A DNA stretch of 64,000 nt from a virus. This document shows, in pieces, positions 29,760 through 56,619 of the stretch. The stretch lies in the IMG/VR virus record IMGVR_UViG_3300044623_001092; one strand, 5' to 3'. The notes below the pieces were generated by a model that was given only the letters and a program-made list of their open reading frames with translations, ran no database searches and had not been told where the DNA came from. Positions within the stretch are counted from its first letter, which is position 1. Each line of letters starts with the position of its first letter. The position numbers and the translations under genes are program-made.

Positions 29760-29761
29760 AT

Positions 29762-29796
29762 AAAAAAAGAGGGTTTTTGTGACCCCCTTTTTTTTT
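29762..29796 (-). terminator. intrinsic terminator
   Basis: minus strand GGGGGT-loop-ACCCTC followed by T7, after the 29812-31731 gene. Confidence 0.65.
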
Positions 29797-29811
29797 ATCT
29801 TAAAAAATAAT

Positions 29812-31731
29812 TTAACTTGCCACATCTGTAATTAACAGTGTATCAGTTGAGTCGTAATATGATAGTCTAGGTTGAGCATCACTTCTTAAAAATATAGTAC
29901 AATTATAGTTAGCGTATACGTGAGTTGATAAACTAAAATTTACAGAATTTAAACCAAATTTAACTTCGTTTAATTGGAAATCATTACCTATTGTGTTAGA
30001 GTAAAAATTGTCAGTAATATTATTATTATAAAAATATTCACCAATATTATTATTATAAAAATAATTACCTATTTTATTACCTTGACTAACACTATTACCA
30101 AAACCAAAATCATTATTAATGAGATTAGAATAGAAATAATTTCTAATTTCATTATATGAGAAGTAATTAGCGATATTATTAGAATAGAAATCATTACCTA
30201 TCTCATTATATTGAAAATTACCAGAAATAACATTACTATAAAAACTATCCCCTATTCTATTTTTAGAGAAATTGTATGAGCCAATAGTTAAATTGGTCCC
30301 GATAGTATTATTTTCAAAAACGTGTTCAATAGTATTTTCGTAGAAATTTGAATATACGGTATTACCATTATATCCGTTACCAATTAAATTACGATTATAA
30401 GTTGAGTAACTTTCATTATTATTATACCCATTACCAATATCATTATTATAGAAATCGTTATAGATTTTATTATCATTAAATTGGTTTCCTATTTCATTAT
30501 TTTGAAAATCTCCATTAGTCCAAACATTATTGTTAAAGTCGTTCCCAATATTATTTCTATAAAAAGAACCACCAATTAGGATATTAAAATCAAAATCACT
30601 ACCAATTCGATTATTATTAAAATTAGAGGTGATATAGTTGTTATTAAAATTTTCCCCAATTATATTACCGTCAAAATCATCATTCGTTGAGTTATTATAA
30701 AATCCATCACCAATTTGATTATTATCACAATCATCATTAAATGTGTTATTATAAGAACCGTTACCGATGGTGTTGTTTCTAAATGAACCTTCTAATAATA
30801 CATTATTTGCCTGTAAAAAATCCCCAGTACCAAATTCTAAATGTAAATTAGAATAGTTACCAATATAGTTATTAACCGCCCCACCATCATCAATAGCGTC
30901 ACCAAATGTTGTGTATTCGTAAACTTGATTTTGGTTTATGTTAGGTTGATAATAACCCATTATACCATCATTATTTCCAAAATAATAAGGTGAATCTGTA
31001 GTTTCATTTATTGTTACACCTGATATAATTGCTATAGAATCACTCTCAACTGATATAACTTCAAAAAATGAAGGATTTAAATTTCGTACTGAAACAATTG
31101 ACCCCGTTGTAAAAGTTGAATTAAATGTTGTGCCCGTGTTACCATATAACACGGCAGTTGTTCCTGTTAAACCACTTATCCCAACAAGACCACTTAATGG
31201 ACTATCTTCGTCATATGAATATCCGTTATATCTTTTAAATAAAATACTTCTGTTATCATAGTCAGTTCTATTATTAAAGTTATCAATTCTTTCAGTGATT
31301 CTACCTTTTGCAGGACTACTAGTTACTTCAGTTGTATTCCAAGTTATGTCGTATGTTATTTTATCATTAGGGTATAATGTTGAATATACGGTAGGAGAAA
31401 ATCCTGTTGTAGATATTGCCAATAATAAAATTGGCTCTGTTGTTCCTGTTTTATAGTTACCCGTTGTTATTGGGGTTTTAGTATTATCATAATTTGGTTG
31501 GTCGTAACACGTTTGGAAGTCAGTCATTAAGTAATAACTTCCAGCGGTTAGTGTTCCACCTGTGGCGAATGAATATAACTCATCGTAAGTACCTTCGTTA
31601 TAGTTTGAATTAGTGAACGCAGAATATGATATATGGTATGTATCACCACTCAATTCTACGGGAAATAATGTATCCGTTGTTACTCCCGAAAGATATGTTA
31701 ATTCCCCAATTGTTTTTCCTGTTAGTGCCAT
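29812..31731 (-). CDS. putative tail fibre/spike with Asn-rich beta-helix repeats
   Basis: about 11-aa repeats F..N.IG(N/D).F..N over the C-terminal 330 aa; S/T/G-rich N-terminus; late motif upstream. Confidence 0.6.
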   Translation of the reverse strand: MALTGKTIGELTYLSGVTTDTLFPVELSGDTYHISYSAFTNSNYNEGTYDELYSFATGGTLTAGSYYLMTDFQTCYDQPNYDNTKTPITTGNYKTGTTEPILLLAISTTGFSPTVYSTLYPNDKITYDITWNTTEVTSSPAKGRITERIDNFNNRTDYDNRSILFKRYNGYSYDEDSPLSGLVGISGLTGTTAVLYGNTGTTFNSTFTTGSIVSVRNLNPSFFEVISVESDSIAIISGVTINETTDSPYYFGNNDGIMGYYQPNINQNQVYEYTTFGDAIDDGGAVNNYIGNYSNLHLEFGTGDFLQANNVLLEGSFRNNTIGNGSYNNTFNDDCDNNQIGDGFYNNSTNDDFDGNIIGENFNNNYITSNFNNNRIGSDFDFNILIGGSFYRNNIGNDFNNNVWTNGDFQNNEIGNQFNDNKIYNDFYNNDIGNGYNNNESYSTYNRNLIGNGYNGNTVYSNFYENTIEHVFENNTIGTNLTIGSYNFSKNRIGDSFYSNVISGNFQYNEIGNDFYSNNIANYFSYNEIRNYFYSNLINNDFGFGNSVSQGNKIGNYFYNNNIGEYFYNNNITDNFYSNTIGNDFQLNEVKFGLNSVNFSLSTHVYANYNCTIFLRSDAQPRLSYYDSTDTLLITDVAS

Positions 31732-31747
31732 AATTTGTTTTTTATTT

Positions 31748-31755
31748 TATAAATA
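31748..31755 (-). promoter_or_regulatory. late promoter motif TATTTATA
   Basis: 16 nt upstream of ATG 31731. Confidence 0.6.
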
Positions 31756-31767
31756 TTATATAGATTA

Positions 31768-32436
31768 TTAAAATTGTAAGTATTCATTATCACCAATTAT
31801 TATATAATCGCCCCCCTCAGTTATTATAGGGTTAATTAATACATCAACAGGTGGTGTTGTACTTGTTGTAGTTGTTACGGGATTGTATGTGGTAGTTGTT
31901 GTTACGGGATTGTATGTGGTAGTTGTTGTTACGGGATTGTATGTGGTAGTTGTTGTTACGGGCGGACATGGTGGGCACGTTGGACATGGGGTAGTTGTTG
32001 TAGTTGTGGTATAAGGACCATTAACACAACAAGGGAATTCAGATGTATAACAACTTTCATACGGTAATTCATCACTAATAAATGATTCTTGAACATTGAT
32101 AAATAATGTTTCTCTTATTGGTAGAATTAAAACCCCATCGTCAGACCTTAGCATAAATTGACCTTCATATCGGCCAACTCTGTTAGTGTCTTTATTAGTA
32201 AATTGATAATAGATATAATATTCGGGTTGGGCATTTGGGTCCTCAAAAAGTTTTTCCACAAATCCTGCTGGTCGTGTACTTATTTTTGGGATGCCTGTTT
32301 CAACATCAACCATAGAAAAGAAGATTGCCGACAACTCAATGTTTTTCATAAAGTTATCGTAATCACTTCTACCGTCTTTAACGACTTGTAATTTTAAAAC
32401 AGGTAATGTTGCGTTTTTTTTAATGAAAAACTCCAT
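31768..32436 (-). CDS. putative virion protein: BppU-like N-terminal domain plus Cys hinge and Thr-rich mucin-like stalk
   Basis: FFIKKNATLPVLKLQV..YYQF..DT..GRYEGQF; then TTTTTTTPCPTCPPCPP(VTTTTTYNP)3. Confidence 0.6.
   Translation of the reverse strand: MEFFIKKNATLPVLKLQVVKDGRSDYDNFMKNIELSAIFFSMVDVETGIPKISTRPAGFVEKLFEDPNAQPEYYIYYQFTNKDTNRVGRYEGQFMLRSDDGVLILPIRETLFINVQESFISDELPYESCYTSEFPCCVNGPYTTTTTTTPCPTCPPCPPVTTTTTYNPVTTTTTYNPVTTTTTYNPVTTTTSTTPPVDVLINPIITEGGDYIIIGDNEYLQF
31871..31962. repeat. perfect 27-bp coding tandem repeat, about 3.4 copies
   Basis: unit gttgttacgggattgtatgtggtagtt, encoding PVTTTTTYN on the minus strand. Confidence 0.9.
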
Positions 32437-32449
32437 TTATTATTTTTAC

Positions 32450-32457
32450 TATAAATA
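32450..32457 (-). promoter_or_regulatory. late promoter motif TATTTATA
   Basis: 13 nt upstream of ATG 32436. Confidence 0.6.
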
Positions 32458-32475
32458 CTTTATAATATAAAATAA

Positions 32476-34167
32476 TTAACTTTCTTTTCTTAAATCTCTA
32501 GAATAATGGTCAAAACGATTATGTTCAGTTGGTGTTAATAATAATAACCCACCATTGATTTTACCTTTTTTAGTTTCTTGGAAAATGTGACTCATCCACG
32601 TTTGTTCATAAGGGTGGGCCCATGTTGTTTCTAAAAACATTTTTCTACTACCTTCTTTTGATACTACTTGAGGCCAATTACAATAATAAACATCACCTGT
32701 CACATAAGGAACACCGTCAAAAATACTAACACTTTCATACTTAGTTTTTGGTGCGTTTTCTGAAGTACCATTTTGTGGTAATTCTTTATTATTAGGCCAA
32801 TATTCTTCTCTAACAACTTGAGGAACATTATACCAACTCCATTGAATTGAATTGTCACCAAAAAATTCACTGAAGTTTAATTTAAGAAAATCAAATTTTT
32901 CTTTTTGGATAATTGACAAACTTTTTCTAAATAAGTTAGGAACGAATCTATTGAAACCATTTCGACATGTTTCACCTTCTTTTGGAAAGAAGAACATATC
33001 ATCCTCAAAGAAATACATGTAATCCATATCAGACTTTTCAAAATGTTCTGCAATCCATTGTCTCCCACCACAAATACCTAAATTTTCCTTTTTAATGTGT
33101 TCAAAACCATATTCACTACAAAGTTCGGAATAGATAGGGGTTGTTGATAAATCAGTTGAATTATCCAATAATATTTTTCTTGGTTTTTTAATAAAATCCT
33201 CGTCATAAGATAACATTGAATCAATTAAAGTTTTTAATTGATTCGGACTATTGAATCCTATCACATACAGACCAACATTATCTTTTGATGGTGGTGTAAA
33301 TGATACGGGCTCAGACAGTTTAATTTCTTCTTGTTTTGGAATTAATTTACCATCTTTTAAATCCTCAAAGAATTTACCAATTAAACCATTATACTCGATA
33401 TCAAAATGTGATACTTTGTCAGAATGTTTATATGTGATAATTGAAAAAATACTTTCTTCGGTACCCATTAATGAATTAGATAATGTATCAGTCAATAATG
33501 AATAGTAGATTCCGTTAATTTCTTCGATAGTATTTTTAGGCCCACCAAAGAACCCTCCTCTAGCAACTAATTTAACCTCGTTATTAGCGTACTTATTTAA
33601 TTCAGGTAAATTAAAACCATGAATTTCTGTCGCACCCTCATATGGGAATGTTATAAATGAAAATTTATCAACATAATTATGTAACTTATCTAAAACTTTG
33701 TCGTGAGTGAAATAACCAGGGTGTACAGTATTTGTAATACCCGCGTCTAACCAAAACAAATATTCAGTATCGAACTTATCCATAATACGAGCATCGTTCA
33801 GTAAGAACATTTTACTCATAACTAATGGATTATAGTACGGTAGTTTTGCTTGTGTTGAATCTTTAATCCAACCTGTTTGTTTTAACCAATTCTCACTATT
33901 TCTAATACTTTGTATTAAATCATAATAATCGTTATTCCTAAACCAATCTAAATTTCTTAATATAAATTGAGTATTAGTATTACTTCTACGTTCTGAGACA
34001 AATTTTTGGAGATTTTCGTCACCAAAAATAATCATATTCTCATCAATCTTTAGAAGTTCATTAAATTTTGTTAAATAATGGTCCATAGACCTAGCCCAAT
34101 CATTAGATAATTGGTCTCTACCAATATCCCATAAACCTGTTACTATTGTTACTTTATTTGAACTCAT
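32476..34167 (-). CDS. HtrL/YibB-like domain fused to a GT-A glycosyltransferase domain
   Basis: TIVTGLWDIGR, YNPLVMSK, FWLDAG, GGFFGG, GTEESI; C-terminal half with ILLDNS, NLGICGGR, FFEDD. Confidence 0.7.
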   Translation of the reverse strand: MSSNKVTIVTGLWDIGRDQLSNDWARSMDHYLTKFNELLKIDENMIIFGDENLQKFVSERRSNTNTQFILRNLDWFRNNDYYDLIQSIRNSENWLKQTGWIKDSTQAKLPYYNPLVMSKMFLLNDARIMDKFDTEYLFWLDAGITNTVHPGYFTHDKVLDKLHNYVDKFSFITFPYEGATEIHGFNLPELNKYANNEVKLVARGGFFGGPKNTIEEINGIYYSLLTDTLSNSLMGTEESIFSIITYKHSDKVSHFDIEYNGLIGKFFEDLKDGKLIPKQEEIKLSEPVSFTPPSKDNVGLYVIGFNSPNQLKTLIDSMLSYDEDFIKKPRKILLDNSTDLSTTPIYSELCSEYGFEHIKKENLGICGGRQWIAEHFEKSDMDYMYFFEDDMFFFPKEGETCRNGFNRFVPNLFRKSLSIIQKEKFDFLKLNFSEFFGDNSIQWSWYNVPQVVREEYWPNNKELPQNGTSENAPKTKYESVSIFDGVPYVTGDVYYCNWPQVVSKEGSRKMFLETTWAHPYEQTWMSHIFQETKKGKINGGLLLLTPTEHNRFDHYSRDLRKES

Positions 34168-34172
34168 ATTAA

Positions 34173-34871
34173 TTATTTTTCTTTTATTTTACAAACCCAC
34201 GCAACTTTAGTAAACACATCTTGTAGGTAATCATATAGATTATTTTCAACACATTTTGAGTAAATGTCGGAGTTTTGTATTTCTAGCCAATTCCAAAATT
34301 TACCTTTAATTTCCGTTTCAAATTTTTCATTATCATAACAATAATCATGAGCCATAATAATATCCCCAACCTTTAAAAGTGGTGATATTAAATTAAATTC
34401 ATTTTTTTTAACCCCACCATCACATAGAACTAAAGTACAACCATCTTGTTGGATAAAGTCAGATAACTCATTTTTAATATTTTCCGAAATAAATTCCGTA
34501 TAATCACCTGAAAATAAATTCTCAACTTTAACCACAATATTTAATTTGTCAGACTCAACTTGAGGGGTTAAATAAATTGGTGGGTTAACATCGTAAGTGA
34601 TTAAATCTGAACTGTGTAAATTGTTATTATCTAATAAATCTCTAATTATTAACGTAAGTCCTCCAGCAAATGTCCCAATTTCTAAAACACGTTTAGGTTT
34701 ATTTTGTGAAATCAATTTATCAAAGGGATAAACTATATTTGGGTTCTGTTCTACTGATAGACCATTATAAGATAAATGACTAATACTACCGTCCCTTATA
34801 ACTGAATTAAAGTAATCATTTTCAAAACAATTTTGTCCTGAACAACTCATTTTATTTTTCACATTTTCCAT
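34173..34871 (-). CDS. class I SAM-dependent methyltransferase (CmcI/Methyltransf_24-like)
   Basis: VLEIGTFAGG, LCDGG, GDIIMAHDY; start moved to ATG at 34871, just after the upstream stop. Confidence 0.75.
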   Translation of the reverse strand: MENVKNKMSCSGQNCFENDYFNSVIRDGSISHLSYNGLSVEQNPNIVYPFDKLISQNKPKRVLEIGTFAGGLTLIIRDLLDNNNLHSSDLITYDVNPPIYLTPQVESDKLNIVVKVENLFSGDYTEFISENIKNELSDFIQQDGCTLVLCDGGVKKNEFNLISPLLKVGDIIMAHDYCYDNEKFETEIKGKFWNWLEIQNSDIYSKCVENNLYDYLQDVFTKVAWVCKIKEK

Positions 34872-34875
34872 ATTA

Positions 34876-35823
34876 TTATTGTATAATACCACAATCATTT
34901 AAAAATGATTCTAGTTGTTTTATTTGGTTTATTGGTAAACAATTATTCTCATACCATTTTCGGGCATTGTTGATAATATCAATATAATCATCATTACTAT
35001 TAATGTAATTAATTTTATCAGTAATTTTTTCCATAATATAATTATGTTCTGACGAATTGTATAACTTACTTCTAATATCGTCATCCAAAAGAGTGATGTA
35101 ATGAACATCATCAATTAGTGGGTCATTTGTTTTTATACTTAATGGTTCTCTTAAACATAAAATACCAAGTCCAAAATATTCTAAATCTCGGTAACAAATT
35201 TTTGCTGCACCATTTAAACTTATCCCAAATTTATATTTAGTGATTTCATTAAAATAATTGGTCTTATTTAGGTAATCGGTTGGATTTGATTTGTCTTTAA
35301 ATAAAAATAATTTATTAGTTGATAATAAATTTCGATATGCGTCTCGTTCACCATAACATAATCCATTAAAATAAATATTGTTTAATCTATCAGGATAATT
35401 TCTATTGTCCTCAATACGTTGAACATCACTTAAATTTTCTAAAATATAGAATGATGGTATAATATTATATTTTGTTGAGTATCTTGAAATAATATCATCA
35501 GTTAAATTTGATGTACATGAGAAGGCCACTACATCAAAGTTTAGAATTCCACTACTATCGTCCATCATCGCGGGAGCATAGTCGGATAAACTATGAATGA
35601 ATGTTTTATTAGTTTCTTTATTTGTGACGATTAAATTATAAATACTAAAAATAGAGGTTGAGGATGATATATCACAATTATCAAATCGTTGAGACAATTC
35701 AGAAATTGGGGTGTATATTACATCATCACCATATTTTGAAACTAAATGTTCATAAAATAAGTGATAAATTTCCCCAACGTACCAATCATGTTGGTAACGA
35801 TTAAAAGAAACTTCAATAGTCAT
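34876..35823 (-). CDS. putative glycosyltransferase (GT-B C-terminal-like)
   Basis: YFNG, KFGISLNG..ICYRDLE..GLG, VHYI, NARKWYE. Confidence 0.55.
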   Translation of the reverse strand: MTIEVSFNRYQHDWYVGEIYHLFYEHLVSKYGDDVIYTPISELSQRFDNCDISSSTSIFSIYNLIVTNKETNKTFIHSLSDYAPAMMDDSSGILNFDVVAFSCTSNLTDDIISRYSTKYNIIPSFYILENLSDVQRIEDNRNYPDRLNNIYFNGLCYGERDAYRNLLSTNKLFLFKDKSNPTDYLNKTNYFNEITKYKFGISLNGAAKICYRDLEYFGLGILCLREPLSIKTNDPLIDDVHYITLLDDDIRSKLYNSSEHNYIMEKITDKINYINSNDDYIDIINNARKWYENNCLPINQIKQLESFLNDCGIIQ

Positions 35824-36667
35824 AACAAGGTATTATTTGTACATTATTTATTTTACTAAAAATTAAAAAATTTGAAGTTCGACTCCATTCTGAAATATGT
35901 GTTATATTTAATGAATCAGATAAAGTTAACATATCAAAAATTGTAAATTTAGTTCTCTCAAATAATTCATTTTGAGACATTACAGGTTTTTTGCCCGTCC
36001 AATGGTTCCCTATTTCATTCTCATATGGTATATCGTATGATATTATTTTACCATCACCTAATTCTTTTATTTTATCTTTAAGTTTAGAACTATTTGAACA
36101 CACAAAAATTTTATCATTATTCACTATTAATTCACTAATTAATTTTTCATATTTTAGATATAATTTGGAATCATCAATGTAGTCGTAAGTCCTGAAATAG
36201 ATTGAATTAAATGGTGTATTTAAATCATATTTAGTTTTAATGTTACGATATTCTTCGTAAATATTTTGATTAAATAATTTAATATCTTTAGGTGTTTTAC
36301 TTTCTTGATATGGATATATGGATAACAATCCATATTTGAAGTTCTCAGGGTCGCTAATAAATAAGTCCCACCAATGTTGACCTGGTGATGCACTACCTAA
36401 TGTGTAAACTCTAGTTAAATCTTCATGAACAATTTGACTTATAGGTGTATCAACAATTGTAACCTTTGAAAAATGGTTAAAAACCTTTTCATTAAATAAA
36501 TCAAAAAAATTTTCGTTATATAAATAAACGTTATTTCTTATGTTTAAAATTAACTCAATATCGTATCCATTTTTTTTTAGTGTTTCGGCGGTTTCAAGGT
36601 ATTCATATACCGCCACAATACAATCACCTAAACCTGATGAAAAATTATGTTGTATTAATGCTCTCAT
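35813..36667 (-). CDS. putative fucosyltransferase (GT11/GT23/O-FucT-like)
   Basis: SGLGD N-terminal motif, SIYFRTYD, IFVCSNS, FDMLTLS, SNF. Confidence 0.6.
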   Translation of the reverse strand: MRALIQHNFSSGLGDCIVAVYEYLETAETLKKNGYDIELILNIRNNVYLYNENFFDLFNEKVFNHFSKVTIVDTPISQIVHEDLTRVYTLGSASPGQHWWDLFISDPENFKYGLLSIYPYQESKTPKDIKLFNQNIYEEYRNIKTKYDLNTPFNSIYFRTYDYIDDSKLYLKYEKLISELIVNNDKIFVCSNSSKLKDKIKELGDGKIISYDIPYENEIGNHWTGKKPVMSQNELFERTKFTIFDMLTLSDSLNITHISEWSRTSNFLIFSKINNVQIIPCYDY

Positions 36668-36679
36668 GTTAATTGGTTT

Positions 36680-37210
36680 TTATTTTATAGCTTCGACATT
36701 TAAACTCATTAATTTCCCATTTTCTTTATCCATATGTGGTATATAGGCTTGTGAGAAATCGTCAATATTTGAATGTTCAGTTTTTCTCCAATCAAAGTAA
36801 TTAACTTCTTTAAAATTAATCGAGATTAAATCTTTTTTTAATGAGTTGAAATCCCATATGTAATAATGGAAATTTTCTTTGTAAGTTTGACCACCATATA
36901 GGAACCCCATTAATTTTGATAAATCTTTGGTCTCATTATAATGTTCGTTAACTGATTGGAAATTAGGTACGGATATTCGTAACACACCACCTTCTTTTAA
37001 AATTTCAAACCATCGTTTTAACACATTAAGATATTCATGTCGACCAAAATGTTCTAATACGTGACAAGCGTAGATTACGTCAACACTATTGTTGGGTATT
37101 TTATTTAACTTGTAAATATCGTCAATAATGTCAGGATTAACGTCAGGTCTAATATCAATATTTACATACCCTTCAATTTTTTTCAACCCACAACCTAAAT
37201 GTAATTTCAT
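36680..37210 (-). CDS. SAM-dependent methyltransferase (Methyltransf_11-like)
   Basis: LHLGCG, NIDI, YACHVLEH, LKEGG.LRISVP. Confidence 0.85.
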   Translation of the reverse strand: MKLHLGCGLKKIEGYVNIDIRPDVNPDIIDDIYKLNKIPNNSVDVIYACHVLEHFGRHEYLNVLKRWFEILKEGGVLRISVPNFQSVNEHYNETKDLSKLMGFLYGGQTYKENFHYYIWDFNSLKKDLISINFKEVNYFDWRKTEHSNIDDFSQAYIPHMDKENGKLMSLNVEAIK

Positions 37211-37230
37211 ATTTAATTTTTTTTCTTATT

Positions 37231-38121
37231 TTATTTTATTAAGTTTTCATTATCAAAAAAACTATAAACGTTATCAAAATTCCCTCTTATCATTGGGACA
37301 ACCATTGATAGATTACCAGGGTACAGGATGACATGTTTACATTTTGATGCGATAATAACTAATGACAATAATCTTTGTAAATATTCTACCTTACTCATTT
37401 TATATTTCTCATAAAATGTTGTATCACTAACTGAGTTAAGTTTAACGTGAAAACCTTTTAAATCCTCGGAAAATGGTAATTCATCTAATATGTTAATACT
37501 GATTTTACTGTTGAATTCGTTAAAGACAGTGATATCGTCGGTCTGTAATATAATTTTGTTATTTTCTAAATTATTGTCGTTAATTATTTTTAAGTAAGTA
37601 TCCACTGATGGTACATCATTCTCCACAACCTTATCAGTTTTTCTAGCCCAAATAAATACGGTATTATCAAAGTCGATTTTATATTTTTCTAATATGTTTG
37701 TGTATACTTTTTTAGTATCATCAGATAATGAAAAATAAGTTTTAATAACCCGATTAATTATGTCAAAATTTATGTGGTGTTTTTCTCTACCTAAACCTAA
37801 ATGACTTGGTTCTTGATATCTTAAAGTATGTTTAAAAACATTATCTGAAATATCACTTAAATTAATCTTTTCATGGTTAATTTTAAATAACTTCGTATAG
37901 AAATCTAATGTATCATCATATTCGGTTAACGTTAATGAAATATTTTCAGGGGTTAAACCCATATAAATGTATGTCAGTATCCCATATGAACATACACACA
38001 AATTTGAAAATAAACCAGCATGTCTATTTAGATAATATGTGTTATCTAATTTATTATATTCATGAGTACCACCCCATAAATCTAATTTAACTAAGTTTTC
38101 ATTAGAATAAGTTTGTGTCAT
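37231..38121 (-). CDS. NodZ/GT23-like fucosyltransferase, paralog 1
   Basis: AGLFSN, FIWARKTDK, IILQTDD; start set at ATG 38121 (MTQTYS) to match paralog. Confidence 0.6.
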   Translation of the reverse strand: MTQTYSNENLVKLDLWGGTHEYNKLDNTYYLNRHAGLFSNLCVCSYGILTYIYMGLTPENISLTLTEYDDTLDFYTKLFKINHEKINLSDISDNVFKHTLRYQEPSHLGLGREKHHINFDIINRVIKTYFSLSDDTKKVYTNILEKYKIDFDNTVFIWARKTDKVVENDVPSVDTYLKIINDNNLENNKIILQTDDITVFNEFNSKISINILDELPFSEDLKGFHVKLNSVSDTTFYEKYKMSKVEYLQRLLSLVIIASKCKHVILYPGNLSMVVPMIRGNFDNVYSFFDNENLIK

Positions 38122-39028
38122 TTTGAAATAAAAAACAATTTTTATACGTATTTTTATATATTGGGACAACTGTTGCACCACAACCTGGATATATTATACA
38201 TTTTTTTGAGTTTATACCTAATAAAGTTATGCAGATTATTTGGGTGATGTATTCGGATTTATCAATATTAAAATCATTGAAGAACTCATCATCAGGGGTT
38301 TTACTAATTAACCTATGGAAAGAATAACCTTTAGCGAATGGTATTTCATCAAAGTATTCGTAATTAAAATTTAACTCATTAAATTCATCTATCATAGTTT
38401 TATCGTCGGTCTGAATGATTATTCTGTCATTTAATAAATTTTCTTCTTTTAAAATTTCATAATATTTTGTAGCATTAGGTATCGTATTTTCTTCGATTTT
38501 ATCCGTTCTTCTAGCCCAAATGAATACATAATCATCTTTAATAAGACCTTTACTTGAAAACATTTTTTCGAAGTATTCATATACCTTATCGTTTGGTGTG
38601 AAAAATTTTTTAATTATTCTATTAGTTATCTCTAAGTTTAATACAGTACTAAACTTTTCGTCAAAATTTGATTTAGGGTAACCCAACCCAAATTTTGATG
38701 GGTATGAATTATGATAAAAATCGTGAATATCTTCGTTAGATAAATCATCAAATTTTAATTCGTATTCTTCATTTAGATTAAAAAATTGTGGATAGATATC
38801 TTCATACGAATAATCGGTCATTGTTAATTTAAAATTTTTAACTTTATACCCATTAATCGTTAATATATAAATCCCAAACATTGCGACTGTTACATTTGAA
38901 TAAAAACCGCAGTCTCTGGTTATAACAAATGATTCGGTGTCTTTATAGTAAACTTGACTACCACCCCATAAGTCTAAATTTAAAATATTATCTGTATAAT
39001 CTGATATGTAATGTAAGTAATTTGACAT
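38102..39028 (-). CDS. NodZ/GT23-like fucosyltransferase, paralog 2
   Basis: CGFYSN, FIWARRTDK, IIIQTDD; shares LDLWGG and YPG with the adjacent gene. Confidence 0.6.
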   Translation of the reverse strand: MSNYLHYISDYTDNILNLDLWGGSQVYYKDTESFVITRDCGFYSNVTVAMFGIYILTINGYKVKNFKLTMTDYSYEDIYPQFFNLNEEYELKFDDLSNEDIHDFYHNSYPSKFGLGYPKSNFDEKFSTVLNLEITNRIIKKFFTPNDKVYEYFEKMFSSKGLIKDDYVFIWARRTDKIEENTIPNATKYYEILKEENLLNDRIIIQTDDKTMIDEFNELNFNYEYFDEIPFAKGYSFHRLISKTPDDEFFNDFNIDKSEYITQIICITLLGINSKKCIIYPGCGATVVPIYKNTYKNCFLFQNDTNLF

Positions 39029-39031
39029 TTA

Positions 39032-40279
39032 TTATAAGTTTCCTGTTAATCTATCACACCACCCTTTTGATTGACTATGAGGCCAAACAACCCAATGACT
39101 TGGTTTATGTGTTGTTTGAAATTGTCTCCATACTTTACAATAACCGTCAGGGTCATTTTTCATATTTCTAATTTCATTTTGGTCAGCATCTTGTCTATGT
39201 ATTGTTTCATCGTTCTCATCGTGGAACGCTACTACCCAAAAATCATAATCATCTTCAGGAACACTATCGTAACCAATATCAATACAATGTTTGAAGATAC
39301 TAGCAAAACTACTTAACCATTCTTCTTCCGACTCAAAAATTTGAGGATTTGGAGGATATTGTTTATCTAAAGTATGTTGTTGTACTGCTCTTTTTGAAAA
39401 TAATAAACCCGAATAAATTTCGTATTCTTTTAATGTACGTTCAGTCCCAAAACCGTATTGACCAAATTCTAATGTTACTTCTTCACCATCCATTCCGAAT
39501 AGTTGTCTATTTTTTGAGTGTGATATACTATTTTTGGTCCCCCAATCTTTATCATCGTCCCATTGTTTTGTTCTCCCCTTACGAGTATATTCGTGCCAAA
39601 CAACGACTTTATGTGGGTGGAATAAATCGTATCCGTGAGTATATGCTCTTGCAGCGATTGAAATCTCTTCACCATGGAAATAAAATTCAGGGTCATGTTG
39701 TACCTCAGTACTGAATTGACCAACAGTAAATGCGAAATGCGCTGAGTAGAATCTTGATGTTACAGGTTCTTTTAGTTTTTCCCAACTTGGTATTGTTTCA
39801 GGTAAGAAAAATACCGCACCTTCAGGAATGAATCTGTCAAACGCCATTCTCCATGGTTCTTTAATTCGTTCTGCGGGGTCATTTTCAGGATTGAATGAAG
39901 AAACATATCCCGTTAAAAGAGGTTTTTCAAAACCTTTCTTTTGAAGTTGTTTAATCATTTTAATTAATGTGTCGTCCCAATCCTTTTCAAATCTCATATG
40001 TGAGTCAATTTGAAGAGTATATTCCTCACCACCATATAATTGTTGAACTTGATTTCTTGCCCAACAAACACCTTTAGATTCAGAATATAAAACATCCGTA
40101 ACTCTAAAACGTTTATCTTTACTATATTCCTCTAACGAATCAAATCCGTCTTCAGGATGATATTGTCGACAAATACCAATAACCAAATTTTTCGGTCTTT
40201 TAGCATTTTCAATCATACTTTTAATGGTTGGGACTAATTGGGGGTCTCTATACGAGGCAATTTGAATAAAAATTTTCAT
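39032..40279 (-). CDS. GT60-family polypeptide/hydroxyproline alpha-GlcNAc transferase (Gnt1/TcOGNT-like, Pfam GlcNAc)
   Basis: IFIQIASYRDP, A..P..L.IGI..Q, SKGVCWAR, LQIDSHMRF..DWD, FHGEEI..AR.YT.GYD, HEY, GFGTERTL.EY. Confidence 0.85.
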   Translation of the reverse strand: MKIFIQIASYRDPQLVPTIKSMIENAKRPKNLVIGICRQYHPEDGFDSLEEYSKDKRFRVTDVLYSESKGVCWARNQVQQLYGGEEYTLQIDSHMRFEKDWDDTLIKMIKQLQKKGFEKPLLTGYVSSFNPENDPAERIKEPWRMAFDRFIPEGAVFFLPETIPSWEKLKEPVTSRFYSAHFAFTVGQFSTEVQHDPEFYFHGEEISIAARAYTHGYDLFHPHKVVVWHEYTRKGRTKQWDDDKDWGTKNSISHSKNRQLFGMDGEEVTLEFGQYGFGTERTLKEYEIYSGLLFSKRAVQQHTLDKQYPPNPQIFESEEEWLSSFASIFKHCIDIGYDSVPEDDYDFWVVAFHDENDETIHRQDADQNEIRNMKNDPDGYCKVWRQFQTTHKPSHWVVWPHSQSKGWCDRLTGNL

Positions 40280-40340
40280 ATAATATTAATTTTATAAAAA
40301 AAATAATATTATAACCTAAAAAATAAACGTAAAATAAAAA

Positions 40341-40802
40341 TTAAATACAATAAGTCCCTATGGTTATTACGATACCTTCATCAGACGATGGTGTTTTACC
40401 GCAAACGTATATTTCGGTGGATGGGTTTAAAGTACTATTAACCATAATACTATTACAATTAATAAAGTTATACATTAAAAAACTTAATGTTGGATTATTA
40501 AATGTTATATTATGACACGAGTTAGGGGTGGGTGTTGGTGTTGGTGTCATTGTCGGAGTCATTGTTGGTGTTGGGGTTGGGGGGCATGCCACATATTGAA
40601 AGGTTTCACAACCTGATGAATCAATAATTTTAATTAATAAACTATTAACACCATTAAGTTGTGACGGTATATTAATATATAAATAAGGTGGAACTGAAAC
40701 AACTCCTGTCTCAACAGTATAACAATAAGTATTTGTTATATCACATATAATAATGTCGTAAGGTGAATGACCTGTTACACCTGAAATTTCAATAATTTGC
40801 AT
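40341..40802 (-). CDS. small putative virion protein with PT-repeat linker
   Basis: two Cys-containing beta domains joined by CPPTPTPTMTPTMTPTPTPTP; late motif upstream. Confidence 0.65.
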   Translation of the reverse strand: MQIIEISGVTGHSPYDIIICDITNTYCYTVETGVVSVPPYLYINIPSQLNGVNSLLIKIIDSSGCETFQYVACPPTPTPTMTPTMTPTPTPTPNSCHNITFNNPTLSFLMYNFINCNSIMVNSTLNPSTEIYVCGKTPSSDEGIVITIGTYCI

Positions 40803-40811
40803 AATCTTCAG

Positions 40812-40819
40812 TATAAATA
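40812..40819 (-). promoter_or_regulatory. late promoter motif TATTTATA
   Basis: 9 nt upstream of ATG 40802. Confidence 0.6.
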
Positions 40820-40831
40820 TAATTCAACATA

Positions 40832-43375
40832 TTAATTATTAAACTGTAATAATATACCACCACTTCCATTTTGAAGAGTTAATCGACTACCATCTTGTAA
40901 TAACAACACACTAAAAATAGTTGTTGGTGTTACTGTCATTGTTGGAGTAACTGTCATTGTTGGTGTAACAGATGGCGTAGGCGTATTAGTTGGTGTTTCA
41001 GTTACTGTTGGTGTAGGTGTGTTAGTTGGTGTTTCAGTTACACTTGGAGTTATTGATGAAGTAGGTGTTTGTGTCGGAGTATCCGTTACTGTTGGTGTAG
41101 GTGTTTGTGTTGGAGTTTCAGTTATACTTGGTGTAGGTGTTTGTGTTGGTGTCTCAGTTACTGTTGGTGTAGGAGTGTTAGTTGGTGTTTCAGTAACGGT
41201 ATTCGTAGGGGTATTGGTTGGGGTCTCAGTTACTGTAGGTGTTGGTGTTTCAGTTGGAGTGTTGGTTGGTGTTTCTGTATTAGTTGGTGTTGGAGTGTTG
41301 GTTGGTGTTTCTGTATTAGTTGGTGTATTAGTCGGAGTTTCAGTAACACTTGGTGTTGGGGTATTAGTAGGTGTTTCAGTATTTGTCGGTGTTTGAGTTG
41401 GCGTAGGGGTTTCAGTGTTAGTCGGAGTGTTAGTCGGAGTCTCAGTTACGGTAGGTGTTGGAGTTGGAGTTTCAGTTGGTGTGTTAGTAGGTGTTTCGGT
41501 TACAGTTGGTGTTGGAGTTTCAGTTGGAGTATTAGTTGGTGTTTCAGTTACACTCGGTGTAGGGGTACTAGTAGGTGTTTCAGTATTAGTAGGGGTGTTG
41601 GTCGGTGTTTCAGTTGGAGTATTAGTTACAGTTGATGTTGGGGTGTTAGTTGGTGTTTCAGTATTAGTAGGTGTTTGAGTTGGAGTTTCGGTTACGGTGG
41701 GTGTAGGTGTTTGAGTTGGGGTTTCGGTTACGGTAGGTGTTGGTGTGTTAGTTGGGGTATTAGTTGGTGTTTCAGTTACAGTTGGTGTTGGTGTTTCAGT
41801 TGGAGTCTCAGTTACTGTAGGTGTTGGGGTACTAGTTGGAGTCTCAGTATTAGTTGGTGTATTAGTCGGAGTTTCAGTAACACTTGGAGTAGGTGTACTA
41901 GTCGGTGTTTCAGTATTAGTTGGGGTGTTAGTTGGCGTTTCAGTTGGGGTGTTAGTTGGCGTTTCAGTAACAGTTGGTGTTGGGGTCTCAGTATTAGTTG
42001 GTGTATTAGTTGGGGTAGGTGTGCTAGTCGGTGTTTCAGTATTAGTTGGAGTGTTAGTTGGTGTTTCAGTAACTGTTGGAGTTGGAGTTTCGGTAGGTGT
42101 TTCGGTAACCGTTGGAGTAGGTGTTTGAGTCGGAGTGTTGGTTGGTGTTTCAGTAACAGTTGGTGTAGGCGTTTCAGTTGGAGTTTCAGTATTTGTTGGT
42201 GTGTTAGTAGGGGTCTCAGTAACAGTTGATGTAGGCGTTTGTGTTGGAGTTTCGGTAACAGTTGATGTTGGGGTATTAGTTGGGGTTTCTGTTACGGTAT
42301 TAGTTGGCGTGTTAGTCGGTGTTTCGGTTACGGTATTAGTTGGCGTATTTGTTGGTGTTTCAGTGTTAGTCGGTGTTGGTGTTTGTGTTGGAGTTTCGGT
42401 AATAGTAGGTGTCACAGTATTGGTTGGGGTAACGGTATTAGTTGGGGTAACAGTACTCGTTTGTGTTGGGGTTTGTGTTGGAGTTTGTGTTGGTGTTTCT
42501 GTTACGGTAGGTGTTGGAGTATTAGTCGGTGTTTCTGTATTTGTTGGTGTGTTAGTCGGTGTTTCTGTATTTGTTGGTGTGTTAGTCGGTGTTTCTGTAT
42601 TTGTTGGTGTGTTAGTCGGTGTTTCTGTGTTAGTTGGTGTTGGTGTATTGGTAGGTGTTTCGGTAATAGTCTGCGTAGGAGTTTGAGTAGGTGTATCAGT
42701 TATTGTTGGTGTATTTGTTGGTGTTTGTGTTGGGGTTTCAGTATTAGTTTGTGTTGGTGTGGAAGTATTCGTTGGCGTAGGAATATTAACAGTTATTGTT
42801 GGAGTTTGTGTCGGGGTGTTTGTTGGGGTATTTGTTTGAGTATTTGTTTGAGTATTTGTTGGGGTATTTGTTTGAGTGGGTGTTTGTGTTGGTGTTTGAG
42901 TTTTAGTAGGTGTATTGGTCGGTGTATTAGTTGATGTTACGGTCTTTGTTGGTGTTGGTGTTCTAGTTATTAAACAAGGGTTTAATGTTTTTGTTGGTGT
43001 TTGTGTTTGTGTTGGAGTTTGTGTTTGTGTTGGAGTATTAGTGGGTGTTTTAGTTAATAAACAAGGATTTAATGTTGGTGTTGATGTTGGTGTTTTAGTA
43101 TTAGTTGGTGTAGGTGTTTTAGTATTAGTCGGCGTAGGTGTTACTGTTGGTGTTGGTCTATAAACATTTAAAAAATTAGGACAATCACTACCTTCAACTA
43201 ATATAGTATATGTACCATAAACCTCTCTTGAAGGAATTAATAAAGAAGGTTCAAAATCGAAAGGTAATTCAACATCACCTAAATTAATAGTAATAACATC
43301 ATTGTCTGGTTTAAAAAGAATATTAGCAATTTCCCCATCATAGTTGATACTACTTATCGTTATTATTTGAGACAT
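40832..43375 (-). CDS. mucin-like Thr/Pro repeat protein
   Basis: 847 aa; about 70-aa globular N-terminus, about 750 aa of TPT(N/Q/E/V/S) repeats, short C-terminal [14 protein letters not shown] motif. Confidence 0.8.
40920..43160. repeat. degenerate coding tandem repeat array (TPTN/TETP)
   Basis: recurring gttggtgt(t/a) units with 6/12/24-nt periodicity and synonymous variation. Confidence 0.9.
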
Positions 43376-43392
43376 TCTCTATTTTTAATTTT

Positions 43393-46224
43393 TTAAAATT
43401 TATTTTCAATCGCTAGACAAACTTCACCGTTTTCTCTGATTAATCTAGCCATATCAGTAAATGATATATAAGCGTGACCTGATTTACCCCAAGTTTTACC
43501 CCAACTATTCTTAATTCTAAATAACTTTGTGTTTCTGTCAACACCATTTATAATATACGCGTGTCCGCCAACAACTCTACCTAAAACTCTAATAACACCA
43601 TTTCTGTCGGGAGTAAACATTGATGAATACCATTTAGTACCAACAACAACAGGTCCTTTAGTTAAAACGGTGTCAATCAATACATTAATATCGTATGTCC
43701 ATAAATATGATGAAATTCTATTTGTAGTTCTCAAATATTTGGCGGCACCTCTTACTGATGTACCGTCATAATTCTCACCAACCCACTCATCAACCTTTTG
43801 GGCTTCACGATAAATTAATGTTGGTGGAACAATAGGTGCGACACCATCATGTCCAACAGGACCATCTTCAATCCAATGAGCCCAAGCATAACCAACACAT
43901 TGAGGTGTCTTACCTTGATTACCCCACCATCCATTAGCGTCCCAATATTTGGAAGTTAAAATGGTTTTTGGTAACGTTAATTTATTTTCTATTAAATATT
44001 TTTTATCACGTTCATCAGGTATAAAAACACGACCTAAAGAATATGGTGTAATTAAATTATTTTCATTTGATTCACTAATGACATATGTGAAATCGTTAAT
44101 CTCACAGAAACTAGTAGAACAATCAGGACAATCAGGATTAAACATTTCAAATTTCTGATTTAATATCTTGAAATTATGTTTAACTTCAGGTGCCGACAAT
44201 GGTTCAGTATACATTCTGAATTGTGAAATCGCACCTTCGAATGTACCTGCAAAATTTTGTTCGATTAATATGTTAGTTTTTAAACCATTAAAAGTTGTAC
44301 CCGTTAAATCATTAGTTGGTAAACATTCTGGGTCTTGAACATATGGGCCAAATGGTTGTGTCGTTGAAGAAAATGTTAAATTTTCACGTAAACCTTGAGT
44401 TCCTCCACCCCATGAAACATTAAATGGTACACCGACTTGTTTTTCTTTGTCAGTACTTAATGCTCTTGGAATAACTTCTTCAAAATCTTCAATAGTATCA
44501 AATATCTGACCATTAATGTAAATTTTTAATCTACCTTTTCGATATTTTGAACTTGTTATCCATTTATCGTTCATTCTAACTAACTCAATTAATTCCGCAA
44601 CTTTACCATTTTCAGAGGTGTAAGGAACGGTAATTAATGACGTTGTATTATTTGCTAATGACTCTAAATATTCTTCTTTGGTTATATCACTTAATCCACC
44701 ACGATAAAACAAATCACAATCATCTAACCAAGTATAACGTTCCCAAACAAAATTTACTTGGAACCAGTGTTCTTCATTTAACCACGCAGGATTTTCTTTT
44801 AAACATCTTGGGTATATTGGTGGGGTACAATAATCAAATACGGTGTATCCTGTAACAAATGTTACCCCTGTTGTAGAACAAGTACCAGTAGTTTCACAAT
44901 CACCTGTTATCCTTAACGCTCTTACCCCTATTTGAGGGTTTTTAGGGTCACCACATAATCTAAATGATAATGCGTTTGATAACGAATCAAATAGTGGGTC
45001 AGATTCACAAGTATTTTCAATAGATGTAAATCCTGTGTAAACACAATCACAATCATGACAAGTATCACATGTTGTACATGTTGGTGTACATGTTGGTGTT
45101 ACAATACAACCATCGGGTGTTGGGGTTGGTGAAGGTGTTGGAGTTGGTGTTGGGTAGATAACTGTTGAACATTCATGTTTTTGGCATTCCCATCCACATG
45201 TTTTACATTCAGACTCATAACATCCACAACCACATGTTAATTTTAATTTTTGATTTCCATTACAAATATCACAACCATAATTTACATGAGGGTCATGTTG
45301 ATTATTAATTGACCTTGGAGGGTAAACATAGAGACAACGACTATTAGTGATTGTTTTATTACAACAAGCACAAGTTTCTAATTTAGTTAATCCTGAAGTA
45401 ATTCTGGTGTATCCTGTAAAACAATTAGGTGTACCATCGGCATGGTGATAAAATTTATTTTCGGCTCTCGCCCCAATATAGAAAAAGGTATTTTTATTTT
45501 GGGGGTATATTTCGTTTAATGTTGTCTCACCAACACCTGGTTGGTATTCGTTAAATAACCTTGGTTTTAATAACATTTCAACGGACCAACCTTTATTCAT
45601 CCTGTTAGGGAAAATATCGTAATCATAACCAAATAATTTATAAAATCCTTGATAAAAACCACCGTATAATTCATGGTACTTACCCACATACGGATTGTCT
45701 TTACTAACAACTTCGTATAATATTGTTTTGTTAAACCCTGAGAATCTAATATTAGGTGAACTAGTGTTACCTGTTACTTGGAATAATTTTAAACGTCTAT
45801 CAAAATTTAAACGTTCAAATTTTTGACTATCATTAAATAACCCATCAGTAAAATTAATTGTTTCACCTGTCATTTTATCAACAAGACCATTATCAATACC
45901 TGTTAACCCAATATCACAAGATGAATGACCTGTAAAACAAGTTAAATCAGTATTGTCGGGATTATAAAAGTTTTGAGAAACAAATATGTTATTTTGATTA
46001 TAATTTTTATATGTTAAAGACAACCCCTGAGATGTTAAAGGATTATCAATATCAAAATAGAATGGTAACTTATTACCGTATGTCTGAGCAATCAAATATG
46101 GGGAGAAAACAACCTCTTGATTGTACCCCTGTTCATCTGATGTTAATGACATATCATATGACTCATTAATGAGTTTTACACCCCAATTTGGATAAACATA
46201 TTGATTAATATTTTGACTCGCCAT
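43393..46224 (-). CDS. multidomain putative virion protein: LamG-like region, Cys-rich/PT linker, C-terminal papain-like (C1A) peptidase
   Basis: FEGAISQFRMY..PLS..EV..NF (LamG end); NQGKTPQCVGYA, GGHAY, KNSWG..WG. Confidence 0.75.
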   Translation of the reverse strand: MASQNINQYVYPNWGVKLINESYDMSLTSDEQGYNQEVVFSPYLIAQTYGNKLPFYFDIDNPLTSQGLSLTYKNYNQNNIFVSQNFYNPDNTDLTCFTGHSSCDIGLTGIDNGLVDKMTGETINFTDGLFNDSQKFERLNFDRRLKLFQVTGNTSSPNIRFSGFNKTILYEVVSKDNPYVGKYHELYGGFYQGFYKLFGYDYDIFPNRMNKGWSVEMLLKPRLFNEYQPGVGETTLNEIYPQNKNTFFYIGARAENKFYHHADGTPNCFTGYTRITSGLTKLETCACCNKTITNSRCLYVYPPRSINNQHDPHVNYGCDICNGNQKLKLTCGCGCYESECKTCGWECQKHECSTVIYPTPTPTPSPTPTPDGCIVTPTCTPTCTTCDTCHDCDCVYTGFTSIENTCESDPLFDSLSNALSFRLCGDPKNPQIGVRALRITGDCETTGTCSTTGVTFVTGYTVFDYCTPPIYPRCLKENPAWLNEEHWFQVNFVWERYTWLDDCDLFYRGGLSDITKEEYLESLANNTTSLITVPYTSENGKVAELIELVRMNDKWITSSKYRKGRLKIYINGQIFDTIEDFEEVIPRALSTDKEKQVGVPFNVSWGGGTQGLRENLTFSSTTQPFGPYVQDPECLPTNDLTGTTFNGLKTNILIEQNFAGTFEGAISQFRMYTEPLSAPEVKHNFKILNQKFEMFNPDCPDCSTSFCEINDFTYVISESNENNLITPYSLGRVFIPDERDKKYLIENKLTLPKTILTSKYWDANGWWGNQGKTPQCVGYAWAHWIEDGPVGHDGVAPIVPPTLIYREAQKVDEWVGENYDGTSVRGAAKYLRTTNRISSYLWTYDINVLIDTVLTKGPVVVGTKWYSSMFTPDRNGVIRVLGRVVGGHAYIINGVDRNTKLFRIKNSWGKTWGKSGHAYISFTDMARLIRENGEVCLAIENKF

Positions 46225-50287: not shown

Positions 50288-50289
50288 AA

Positions 50290-51000
50290 ATGATAAAAAT
50301 ACCAATTACAAAAATTTTATTCTTGGACATTGAGACGGTTGGAGCTTGTCCCGACTATGACTCATGTGCCGCTTTAGACACTGATATTGCTAATCAATTT
50401 GACAAATATTTTGATTGGTTTCAGAAAAGATTTCCTGAAGATGCCGCGGTAGAAATTGACCAAAAAAATTACATGTTTAAAAGACGTGCGGCATTAGTAC
50501 CTGAATTCGCTAAAATCGTTTGTGTTAGTGTTGCGTTTGTTACTGACAAAGGTGAAACTAAAGCTCAAACATTTTCAGGTGGCGATGAGAAAGAAGTTTT
50601 ATTGGGGGTACAAAAATTACTTGATAGATGTGGAAAGTTAGATTTCTATCTATGTGGTCACAACTTAAAAAACTTCGATATTCCTATGTTGGCAAAACGT
50701 ATGATTATTAATGGTTTATTACCACCATCAATCCTACCATCTTATGATACTAAACCTTGGGAGATTAAGGCAATCGACACAAAAGAAATTTGGCAATACG
50801 GGTCGTACACTTCAATTGGGTCTTTAGATTTAATGTGTACTTGTATGGAAGTACCATCACCAAAAGATGGTGAGGTTACTGGTGATAAGGTTCATGAAGC
50901 ATATTGGGAAAAAAGTATGATAAAAGAAATTGCGGAATATTGTGAACGTGATGTTCAAGTATTAATTGATGTAATAAAAAAATTAAAAGAATTAAAATGA
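50290..51000 (+). CDS. DEDD 3'-5' exonuclease (PolB-exo2-like)
   Basis: LDIET, GHNLKNFDIP, YCERDV. Confidence 0.85.
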   Translation: MIKIPITKILFLDIETVGACPDYDSCAALDTDIANQFDKYFDWFQKRFPEDAAVEIDQKNYMFKRRAALVPEFAKIVCVSVAFVTDKGETKAQTFSGGDEKEVLLGVQKLLDRCGKLDFYLCGHNLKNFDIPMLAKRMIINGLLPPSILPSYDTKPWEIKAIDTKEIWQYGSYTSIGSLDLMCTCMEVPSPKDGEVTGDKVHEAYWEKSMIKEIAEYCERDVQVLIDVIKKLKELK

Positions 51001-51605: not shown

Positions 51606-51615
51606 ATAAGTAAAA

Positions 51616-53118: not shown

Positions 53119-53135
53119 TAAAATTAGAAGAATAT

Positions 53136-55085: not shown

Positions 55086-55090
55086 CCAAT

Positions 55091-56616: not shown

Positions 56617-56619
56617 ATT

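Follow-up and report, generated by a model that had tools for sequence, protein, structure and literature searches.

What does a phage do with eight adjacent genes for glycosyltransferases (GTs) and methyltransferases? The question is raised by IMG/VR virus record IMGVR_UViG_3300044623_001092, of which a stretch of 64 kb with ~30% G+C, called the window here, was analysed. The eight-gene operon (32476-40279) starts with a GT60-family gene, ends with a gene that joins an HtrL domain to a GT-A domain (HtrL-GT-A) and lies among genes for proteins rich in threonine (Thr) and proline (Pro); an earlier note on this DNA had proposed that it gives the virion a coat of mucin-type O-glycans. The module is real, coherent and widespread and, as far as sequence comparison can tell, probably a phage system for protein O-glycosylation. 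The reading that we favour, at a probability of roughly 0.6, is a cytoplasmic, mucin-like O-glycosylation of the phage's own proteins. All open reading frames (ORFs) listed in the earlier note are present where it placed them on the minus strand, and the operon it described stands, with eight co-oriented genes whose enzyme families hold. The window encodes a T4-like contractile tail (sheath at 16641-19970, a tube-like and a baseplate-like gene), and related IMG/VR contigs reach up to 322 kb; the source is therefore an uncultured jumbo myophage.

The first operon gene is, by its sequence, a true member of family GT60, as the earlier note had supposed. PF11397 matches its product with 243.5 bits (E 6e-72; cut-off 21) over profile positions 2-44 and 96-349 of 352, and phrog_24687 matches with E 8e-169. 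Residues D92-S93-H94 are invariant among 16 phage homologues of 39-87% identity, and we take this DSH to be tied to catalysis as an Asp-x-His type metal/nucleotide-sugar motif of the GT-A group. A sequence search of the PDB with the protein gave nothing useful, no solved GT60 structure being matched. Mucin-type glycans of protists are initiated by GT60 polypeptide alpha-N-acetylglucosamine (GlcNAc) transferases (PMC8724618), and by family analogy the phage enzyme is a candidate initiator that would transfer alpha-GlcNAc from uridine diphosphate (UDP)-GlcNAc onto Thr.

A co-occurrence of GT60 with genes for proline/threonine (PT) repeat proteins, which the earlier note had singled out for testing, was found within the clade of this phage, in distant phages and in bacteria of many phyla. 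Tracts were defined as stretches of 20 residues with at least 80% Thr, Pro or serine and at least 35% Thr. GT60 relatives in IMG/VR number at least 418; the best 80 loci were compared with the window, and 53 distinct related contigs with upstream sequence were used for tract counts. The order in the best 80 loci is a peptidase protein, one or more Thr/Pro genes, GT60, 1-7 kb of filling, HtrL-GT-A, a homologue of the 222-amino-acid (aa) protein of the window, and the gene for family B DNA polymerase (PolB). A tract ORF ends right before GT60 in 42 of the 53 contigs, and 49 have a co-oriented tract ORF upstream. The tract ORFs before GT60 range from 266 to more than 3300 aa and differ widely in sequence, and one ends in a lectin-type domain.

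Because the related loci share descent, the pairing was examined outside the clade. XacN1-type phages, whose GT60 is 45-49% identical, retain the order of GT60 and then HtrL-GT-A. At two phage loci where the identity of GT60 drops to 38%, a 404-aa tract ORF lies directly upstream. On cellular genome contigs from many phyla, an HtrL-GT-A homologue lies no more than 4 kb from GT60 in 38 of 80 loci. Tract ORFs beside this unit amount to 0.147 per flank in the first kb against 0.00-0.04 in each of the next seven, an enrichment of about 5-fold to which 19 of the 80 loci contribute, including that of the isolate Jiulongibacter sediminis. The bacterial Thr/Pro proteins often start with twin-arginine-like signals, which fits modification in the cytoplasm before export.

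Some of the cellular loci have peculiarities of their own. One of these Thr/Pro proteins has an end like a type IX secretion C-terminal domain, and Thr/Pro proteins of Gemmatimonadota at two loci carry a PqqD-like domain at their start. The closest cellular homologues of GT60 (69-73% identity) and HtrL-GT-A (57-60%) are on five Saprospiraceae contigs from metagenome-assembled genomes (MAGs), a lead to the host or to a gene-exchange partner within the Bacteroidota; short contigs may be phage DNA binned into MAGs.

Only four ORFs in the 64 kb are tract-positive, three of which flank the operon while the fourth is the tail sheath. The candidate main acceptor, an 847-aa protein, has a repeat body of 738 residues, 48% of them Thr and 22% Pro. 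Since codon use in it is mixed and the repeats in the DNA are only 60-80% alike, the Thr/Pro composition is kept at the protein level. Homologues of its N-terminal part occur in 18 loci, and the large, variable Thr/Pro proteins that relatives have upstream of GT60 also begin with the N-terminal domain of the 153-aa protein. The earlier note had counted four flanking genes as Thr/Pro-rich, which is apt for the 847-, 153- and 222-aa proteins and generous for the 943-aa peptidase protein with its short PT linker. The neighbouring 639-aa protein is rich in asparagine, not in Thr/Pro, and a family search with it gave no match.

In layout, the Thr/Pro proteins are fibre-like, with a small N-terminal domain, a long stalk and a short recurring C-terminal motif. 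At many loci they end with a short two-fold motif, such as LINPIL.GED.YL.VGDNEYL.F or LLQDGS..LQDGSG (window 31768-31840 and 40832-40930), which may be a small trimerising or docking element and presumably bears a loose resemblance to the foldon of T4 fibritin. The TCPPCPP of the 222-aa protein is encoded at ~31900-32000.

Among the Thr tracts, the insertion in the tail sheath alone belongs to a protein that is certain to be part of the virion. It spans ~45 residues, is kept in relatives with at least 64% sheath identity and is absent at 59-61%; in some lineages PTPTPT replaces the Thr runs at an unchanged position. An Asn-Pro-Cys motif lies between Thr runs of the sheath insertion and is conserved there among relatives; the 847-aa protein has two such motifs (42900-43100). 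A second conserved cysteine follows the sheath insertion, and a disulfide-closed loop is therefore possible.

Tail genes and Thr/Pro genes share an upstream motif, TATTTAT, which lies 11-46 nt before the start codons of 14 genes, so that 14 of its 51 occurrences fall within ~2.6% of the strand-specific sequence (examples on the minus strand are 12142, 14079, 16600, 31755, 32457, 40819 and 46241; on the plus strand 23803, 25332 and 46255). It precedes the 222-aa homologue in 45 of 46 relatives and, in the window, the gene of the 943-aa protein, which is the first of the block and syntenic in relatives. Before HtrL-GT-A it occurs in 1 of 50 relatives, and the genes from GT60 to HtrL-GT-A are thereby set apart as one unit. 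As it stands before the 153-aa gene and before none of the eight operon genes, acceptor and operon may share one transcript. We regard TATTTAT as a candidate phage promoter element. The T4-type late promoter TATAAATA was not enriched (16 found against 20 expected), the recurring motif being the complement TATTTAT. A designation as a late promoter was dropped because the motif also precedes PolB in 15 of 30 relatives. Scans for sigma-70 promoters and terminators stayed at chance level.

With the motif before PolB in half of the relatives, late expression is unproven, which lends some weight to the strongest alternative, in our estimate an unlikely one. It holds that phage proteins are glycosylated but that the products do not coat the particle: they would be non-virion proteins that are released at lysis or act on the surface of the infected cell, or the sheath loop would be the sole virion target. 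That the bacterial Thr/Pro proteins beside GT60 are mostly exported, with twin-arginine-like signals, would agree with this, the family's usual substrates then not being virion parts. So would the lack of a virion family match for the 847-, 153- and 222-aa proteins: PHROGs returned only a match of unknown function for the 153-aa protein, tblastn with the 222-aa protein gave no match among cultured phages, and the N-terminal domain of the latter matched neither Pfam nor the PDB, a profile search of the PDB included. The fibre-like architecture, however, argues for a place on the particle, as do Thr/Pro proteins of relatives, some of which are longer than 3300 aa or have a lectin-type domain at their end in the style of phage fibres. 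The Thr/Pro protein of XacN1 stands in a structural context beside baseplate wedge genes, and the phage Thr/Pro proteins, unlike the exported bacterial ones, have no signal peptide-like segment.

The last operon gene encodes a true HtrL and GT-A fusion, as had been claimed. HtrL_YibB (PF09612) matches residues 5-250 with E 1.9e-16, and the model has a second GT-A domain at ~287-559 with Z ~16 to B4GALNT1, POMGNT1 and GnT-I, in which the acidic motif E388-D389-D390 is invariant. Over both domains the protein aligns with other two-domain transferases, among them LH3, mimivirus R699, LARGE1 and chondroitin polymerase. HtrL-GT-A is present in 79 of the 80 related loci, in XacN1-type phages and beside GT60 in bacteria. 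By analogy with LARGE1-type enzymes of similar domain layout, the dual-domain enzyme may polymerise a repeating unit.

The GT-A domain also resembles many polysaccharide enzymes, and HtrL_YibB is named after a gene of the lipopolysaccharide core region of Escherichia coli. Both points could mean that the operon acts during infection on sugars other than those of proteins, building or modifying, for example, the lipopolysaccharide or capsule of the host or another sugar of its envelope. The Thr/Pro genes would then be fibre genes with no relation to it, and their tracts ordinary flexible linkers. The GT2 enzymes in a second sugar island of the window would agree with this, as would a related record, G003, whose Thr/Pro protein persists without the operon. 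We nevertheless consider this explanation quite improbable. The eight operon proteins are all soluble, with no hydrophobic segment of the membrane type, and no flippase, polymerase or lipid-carrier transferase was found within the operon, which makes a lipid-linked or polysaccharide product unlikely. In addition, linkage to Thr/Pro genes is seen repeatedly across phyla at loci that are not syntenic, and GT60 is known only as a protein-modifying family (PMC8724618).

For the six genes between GT60 and HtrL-GT-A, the earlier note had proposed two NodZ-like GTs, another fucosyltransferase-like GT, a further GT and two methyltransferases. Fold and paralogy bear out the pair, and both methyltransferases are intact; the other two GTs are leads only. 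The AlphaFold2 model of the second operon protein has a predicted local distance difference test (pLDDT) score of 90.9, and its first 14 PDB matches in Foldseek are all fucosyltransferases (FUT8, NodZ, POFUT2/1, FUT1; E 1e-5 to 1e-3, template modelling score ~0.5). The modelled protein thus folds like transferases that depend on guanosine diphosphate (GDP)-fucose, those of the GT23 superfamily with the related GT65, GT68 and GT37. The Pfam match to FUT8_N_cat is weak (E 0.097), a PDB sequence search gave nothing useful, and the closest viral match is a fucosyltransferase of the cyanophage Synechococcus phage S-SRM01. Residues R173, T175, D176, K177 and E180 are invariant in 20 homologues, and we take them to resemble the Arg-containing, GDP-binding motif of FUT8.

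The third operon gene is a tandem duplicate of the second, with which it shares a WAR(R/K)TDK motif, and by this paralogy its product is assigned the same fucosyltransferase fold; its true start is probably an ATG near 38121 instead of the GTG at 38181. The 284-aa protein is a weak lead to a further fucosyltransferase-like enzyme, its language-model neighbours bearing NodZ, O-FucT or FUT8_N_cat with scores of 0.95-0.97, and the 315-aa protein is possibly a GT-B-type glycosyltransferase. Pfam matched neither of these two, and even at loose thresholds it left four operon ORFs, as well as the N-terminal domains of the Thr/Pro proteins, without a family.

Across the 80 related loci, homologues were found for the Methyltransf_24 gene in 22, directly before HtrL-GT-A, for the 315-aa gene in 12, for the 284-aa gene in 3 and for the third operon gene in 2; none were found for the second operon gene or for the small methyltransferase. 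GT60 and HtrL-GT-A appear as fixed bookends, the 1-7 kb between them being exchanged among relatives, and none of the 80 closest loci has a counterpart of the tandem fucosyltransferase-like pair found here. The inner cassette looks like a device for diversifying the glycan. A fixed pathway of initiating, elongating and capping enzymes, as envisaged in the earlier note, was not borne out, since the six inner genes are replaced among relatives. Because the cassette genes are swapped, fucosylation and methylation would be traits of this strain at most. Of the fucosylated, methylated brush once pictured on the particle, the enzymes and the linkage with tracts stand, and the two modifications are confined at most to this phage.

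Donor synthesis had been assigned to gmd and fcl at 57.8-59.7 kb. The location and gmd hold, and the second gene is better called fcl-like; both score under the curated equivalog cut-offs, so that besides GDP-fucose a related GDP-6-deoxyhexose is possible, and the pair is predicted to make one or the other. The fucosyltransferase fold, gmd and the fcl-like gene are mutually coherent. The second sugar island, in which exonuclease and dUTPase genes are interspersed, suggests an unusual branched or methylated deoxy-sugar.

What was observed is to which families the enzymes belong, that they are soluble, that tracts exist and that the linkage of tracts with enzymes is conserved; from this we infer acceptors, sugars, an order of steps and, for proteins other than the sheath, a place on the virion. 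During infection the soluble GT60 enzyme would put the first sugar on Thr of the phage Thr/Pro tracts, the proposed acceptors being the 847-, 153- and 222-aa proteins and the Thr-run loop of the tail sheath. HtrL-GT-A would attach the next sugars, and the strain-specific cassette, with three fucosyltransferase-like enzymes, one further GT and two methyltransferases, would complete the chain, fed by gmd and the fcl-like gene. The result would be glycosylated, extended and protease-resistant stalks on the sheath surface, where the virion location is certain, and on what would be fibre-like appendages. A broader proposal, which we put forward tentatively as possible rather than probable, is that GT60 and HtrL-GT-A form the core of an undescribed, widespread mucin-type protein O-glycosylation of prokaryotes, used by bacteria before export and adopted by jumbo phages, with a swappable cassette, for fibres and sheath.

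Several observations weigh against glycosylation of the phage's own proteins. In Pfam, PHROGs and the PDB, no known virion protein family was matched by the N-terminal domains of the Thr/Pro proteins. Proteins with PT linkers are frequent also where there is no GT60, and the 42 of 53 contigs are not 42 independent events, synteny within the clade being due to descent. Among the XacN1-type loci, no more than about half show a tract ORF at a distance of up to 10 kb. The six inner genes of the operon vary from relative to relative, and the assignments of the 284-aa and 315-aa proteins come from language-model neighbours only. Strict co-variation of the sheath insertion with GT60 was tested and failed, since record G002 has GT60 without the insertion; the parts are therefore not strictly coupled. 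Record G003 (L189-L191), which shares syntenic tail genes up to PhoH, lacks GT60 through HtrL-GT-A at the site and still has gmd/fcl and a 1425-aa Thr/Pro protein, in which the N-terminal domain of the 222-aa type is fused to the Thr/Pro part directly before PolB (~28357-33662). The G003 contig covers ~17% of the genome, so GT60 may lie elsewhere.

The co-oriented minus-strand block extends over 26860-46224 and includes PolB (26860-29670), for which reason the operon ends are not fixed by strand alone. The operon adjoins PolB here and in XacN1, and the transferases might thus be thought to hypermodify phage DNA with sugars, as in T4 and other phages that glycosylate 5-hydroxymethylcytosine; GT-A and GT-B enzymes of DNA-glycosylating phages are widespread (bioRxiv 10.1101/2023.12.21.572611). 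This is highly improbable in our view. Genes of such pathways usually cluster (bioRxiv 10.1101/2023.12.21.572611), yet the window ORFs that were scanned included no gene for a thymidylate-synthase-like protein, a 5-methylpyrimidine dioxygenase or a DNA methyltransferase. Fucosyltransferase-like folds and O-methyltransferases suit glycan building, and in bacterial chromosomes the unit of GT60 and HtrL-GT-A stands beside exported Thr/Pro proteins.

Cultured relatives offer the nearest comparison for glycosylation of the phage's own proteins. The Xanthomonas jumbo phage XacN1 and its relatives Xoo-sp13, CM1 and RAS14 have GT60 (45-48% identity) and HtrL-GT-A (42-43%) in the same order and direction as the window, with variable filling between them. 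In XacN1, ORF334 is the GT60 homologue (48%), ORF330 the HtrL-GT-A homologue (42%) and ORF325 a 3313-aa neighbour with PT tracts beside baseplate genes. Unlike in the window, the filling of XacN1 consists of a carbamoyltransferase and two unknown ORFs, with no fucosyltransferases or methyltransferases, and its Thr/Pro gene is convergent, not directly upstream. At least two bands of XacN1 virions are periodate-Schiff-positive, which the authors credited in 2018 to phage glycosyltransferases (PMC5852040). They did not identify the bands and linked neither GT60 nor PT tracts to the staining. The earlier note had known of no precedent for such a module. In literature searches, neither GT60 nor PF11397 turned up in connection with phages or with bacterial Thr/Pro proteins, and nothing beyond XacN1 was found on Schiff-stained phage glycoproteins with glycosyltransferases. 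The statement of the note is nevertheless somewhat too strong, since the XacN1 authors had already proposed that the glycosyltransferases of that phage produce virion glycoproteins (PMC5852040).

With the GT60 systems of the protists Dictyostelium and Trypanosoma cruzi, the window shares PF11397, the DSH motif and Thr/Pro-rich candidate acceptors (PMC8724618). Its enzyme is soluble, as is the cytoplasmic Gnt1 of Dictyostelium, which acts on hydroxyproline of Skp1. Unlike these systems, the phage and bacterial ones have no Golgi and no Skp1, and the partner enzyme is an HtrL and GT-A protein, not PgtA; no prolyl hydroxylase was seen in the window. The Skp1 pathway runs in parallel to the order proposed here, with an initiator, then a two-domain transferase and then the addition of fucose. 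Another parallel is that of the serine-rich repeat adhesins of Gram-positive bacteria, on whose Ser/Thr-rich repeats O-GlcNAc is placed in the cytoplasm before variable transferases, encoded beside the substrate, extend it. That system differs in its GT-B (GT4) initiator pair GtfA/GtfB and accessory Sec export, and has neither a sequence relation to the window nor a phage context.

Among viruses, the capsid glycans of chlorovirus PBCV-1 include fucose and methylated sugars. Both in PBCV-1 (PMC5852040) and, according to the account of Freeman et al. 2023 in PMC12619734, in mycobacteriophages, virus-encoded soluble transferases act in the host cytoplasm on the virus's own structural proteins. 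The enzyme families are others, GT60 not being known among them, and the targets are the termini of capsid or tail-tube subunits or N-linked sites of the capsid protein, in contrast to the long Thr/Pro tandem tracts of the window. Few glycosylated phage particles are known; their glycans affect recognition by antibodies and probably adsorption. If the proposed reading is true, the window represents a different and much more widespread route of phage glycosylation, with homologues in cultured jumbo phages of Xanthomonas and Stenotrophomonas, and GT60, thought of as a protist mucin initiator, extends to phages and bacteria. The swappable cassette suggests strain-level diversity of the glycans on appendages, which bears on host range, particle stability and stickiness in the environment.

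Table 1. Features of the module and of the sugar genes further along the window
Feature	Position	Strand	Basis or description
GT60-family (PF11397) glycosyltransferase	39032..40279	-	PF11397 profile match; phrog_24687; invariant DSH; candidate initiating polypeptide GlcNAc-transferase
Fucosyltransferase-like GT (second operon gene)	38102..39028	-	FUT8/NodZ-type fold; AlphaFold2 model and Foldseek
Paralogue of the second operon gene (third operon gene)	37231..38181	-	Tandem duplication; 32% identity over 297 aa, E 3e-52
Small class I S-adenosylmethionine-dependent methyltransferase	36680..37210	-	Methyltransf_11 E 2e-6; N-terminal LHLGCG
284-aa fucosyltransferase-like protein (weak lead)	35813..36667	-	Language-model neighbours
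315-aa protein, possible GT-B-type glycosyltransferase	34876..35823	-	Language-model neighbours bear Glyco_trans_1_2
Methyltransf_24 (sugar O-methyltransferase type)	34173..34898	-	PF13578 E 2e-7; RMNT_CmcI E 6e-3
Two-domain glycosyltransferase, HtrL_YibB and GT-A	32476..34167	-	PF09612 match and model; last gene of unit
847-aa protein, candidate main acceptor	40832..43375	-	~70-aa N-terminal domain, ~740-residue degenerate TPTxTPT repeat, short C-terminal LLQDGS..LQNGSG
153-aa protein	40341..40802	-	Translation: two small domains joined by PT linker; TATTTAT upstream
222-aa protein	31768..32436	-	Conserved N-terminal domain, Thr-run stalk with TCPPCPP, C-terminal motif ending YLQF; TATTTAT
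943-aa protein	43393..46224	-	Cys-rich N-terminal part, short PT linker, C-terminal papain-like (C1) peptidase; Peptidase_C1 E 2.5e-6; phrog_16701 E 1.5e-54
639-aa Asn-rich repeat protein, fibre-like	29812..31731	-	Translation; module neighbour; in 12 related loci
Thr-run insertion in tail sheath gene	19005..19121	-	Three Thr runs around NPC-V-TP; sheath Pfam matches
Second sugar island	49073..57840	+	Next five rows; exonuclease and dUTPase genes interspersed
Weak GT4-like gene	49073-50287	+	Second sugar island
Double GT2	51616-53118	+	Second sugar island
Second gmd-like dehydratase	54147-55085	+	Second sugar island
FkbM methyltransferase	56008-56616	+	Second sugar island
Sugar C-methyltransferase type enzyme	56620-57840	+	Second sugar island
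fcl-like gene	57840..58751	+	Best match GDP-L-fucose synthase, 225 bits (NCBIfam equivalog cut-off 500)
gmd	58732..59718	+	407.6 bits (NCBIfam equivalog cut-off 415)

Besides PolB, the window encodes PhoH, a dUTPase and an exonuclease. No DNA-level match to the gene block was obtained among cultured phages by megablast, and no tRNA genes were found in the 64 kb. A further GT2 gene lies beyond the second sugar island and the GDP-sugar genes, at 62488-63312 on the plus strand. In the tail region, a 1600-aa protein (7318-12120) contains a weak OmpA-like segment of the peptidoglycan-binding type at residues 823-904, with E 5.8e-5 and a score under the cut-off.

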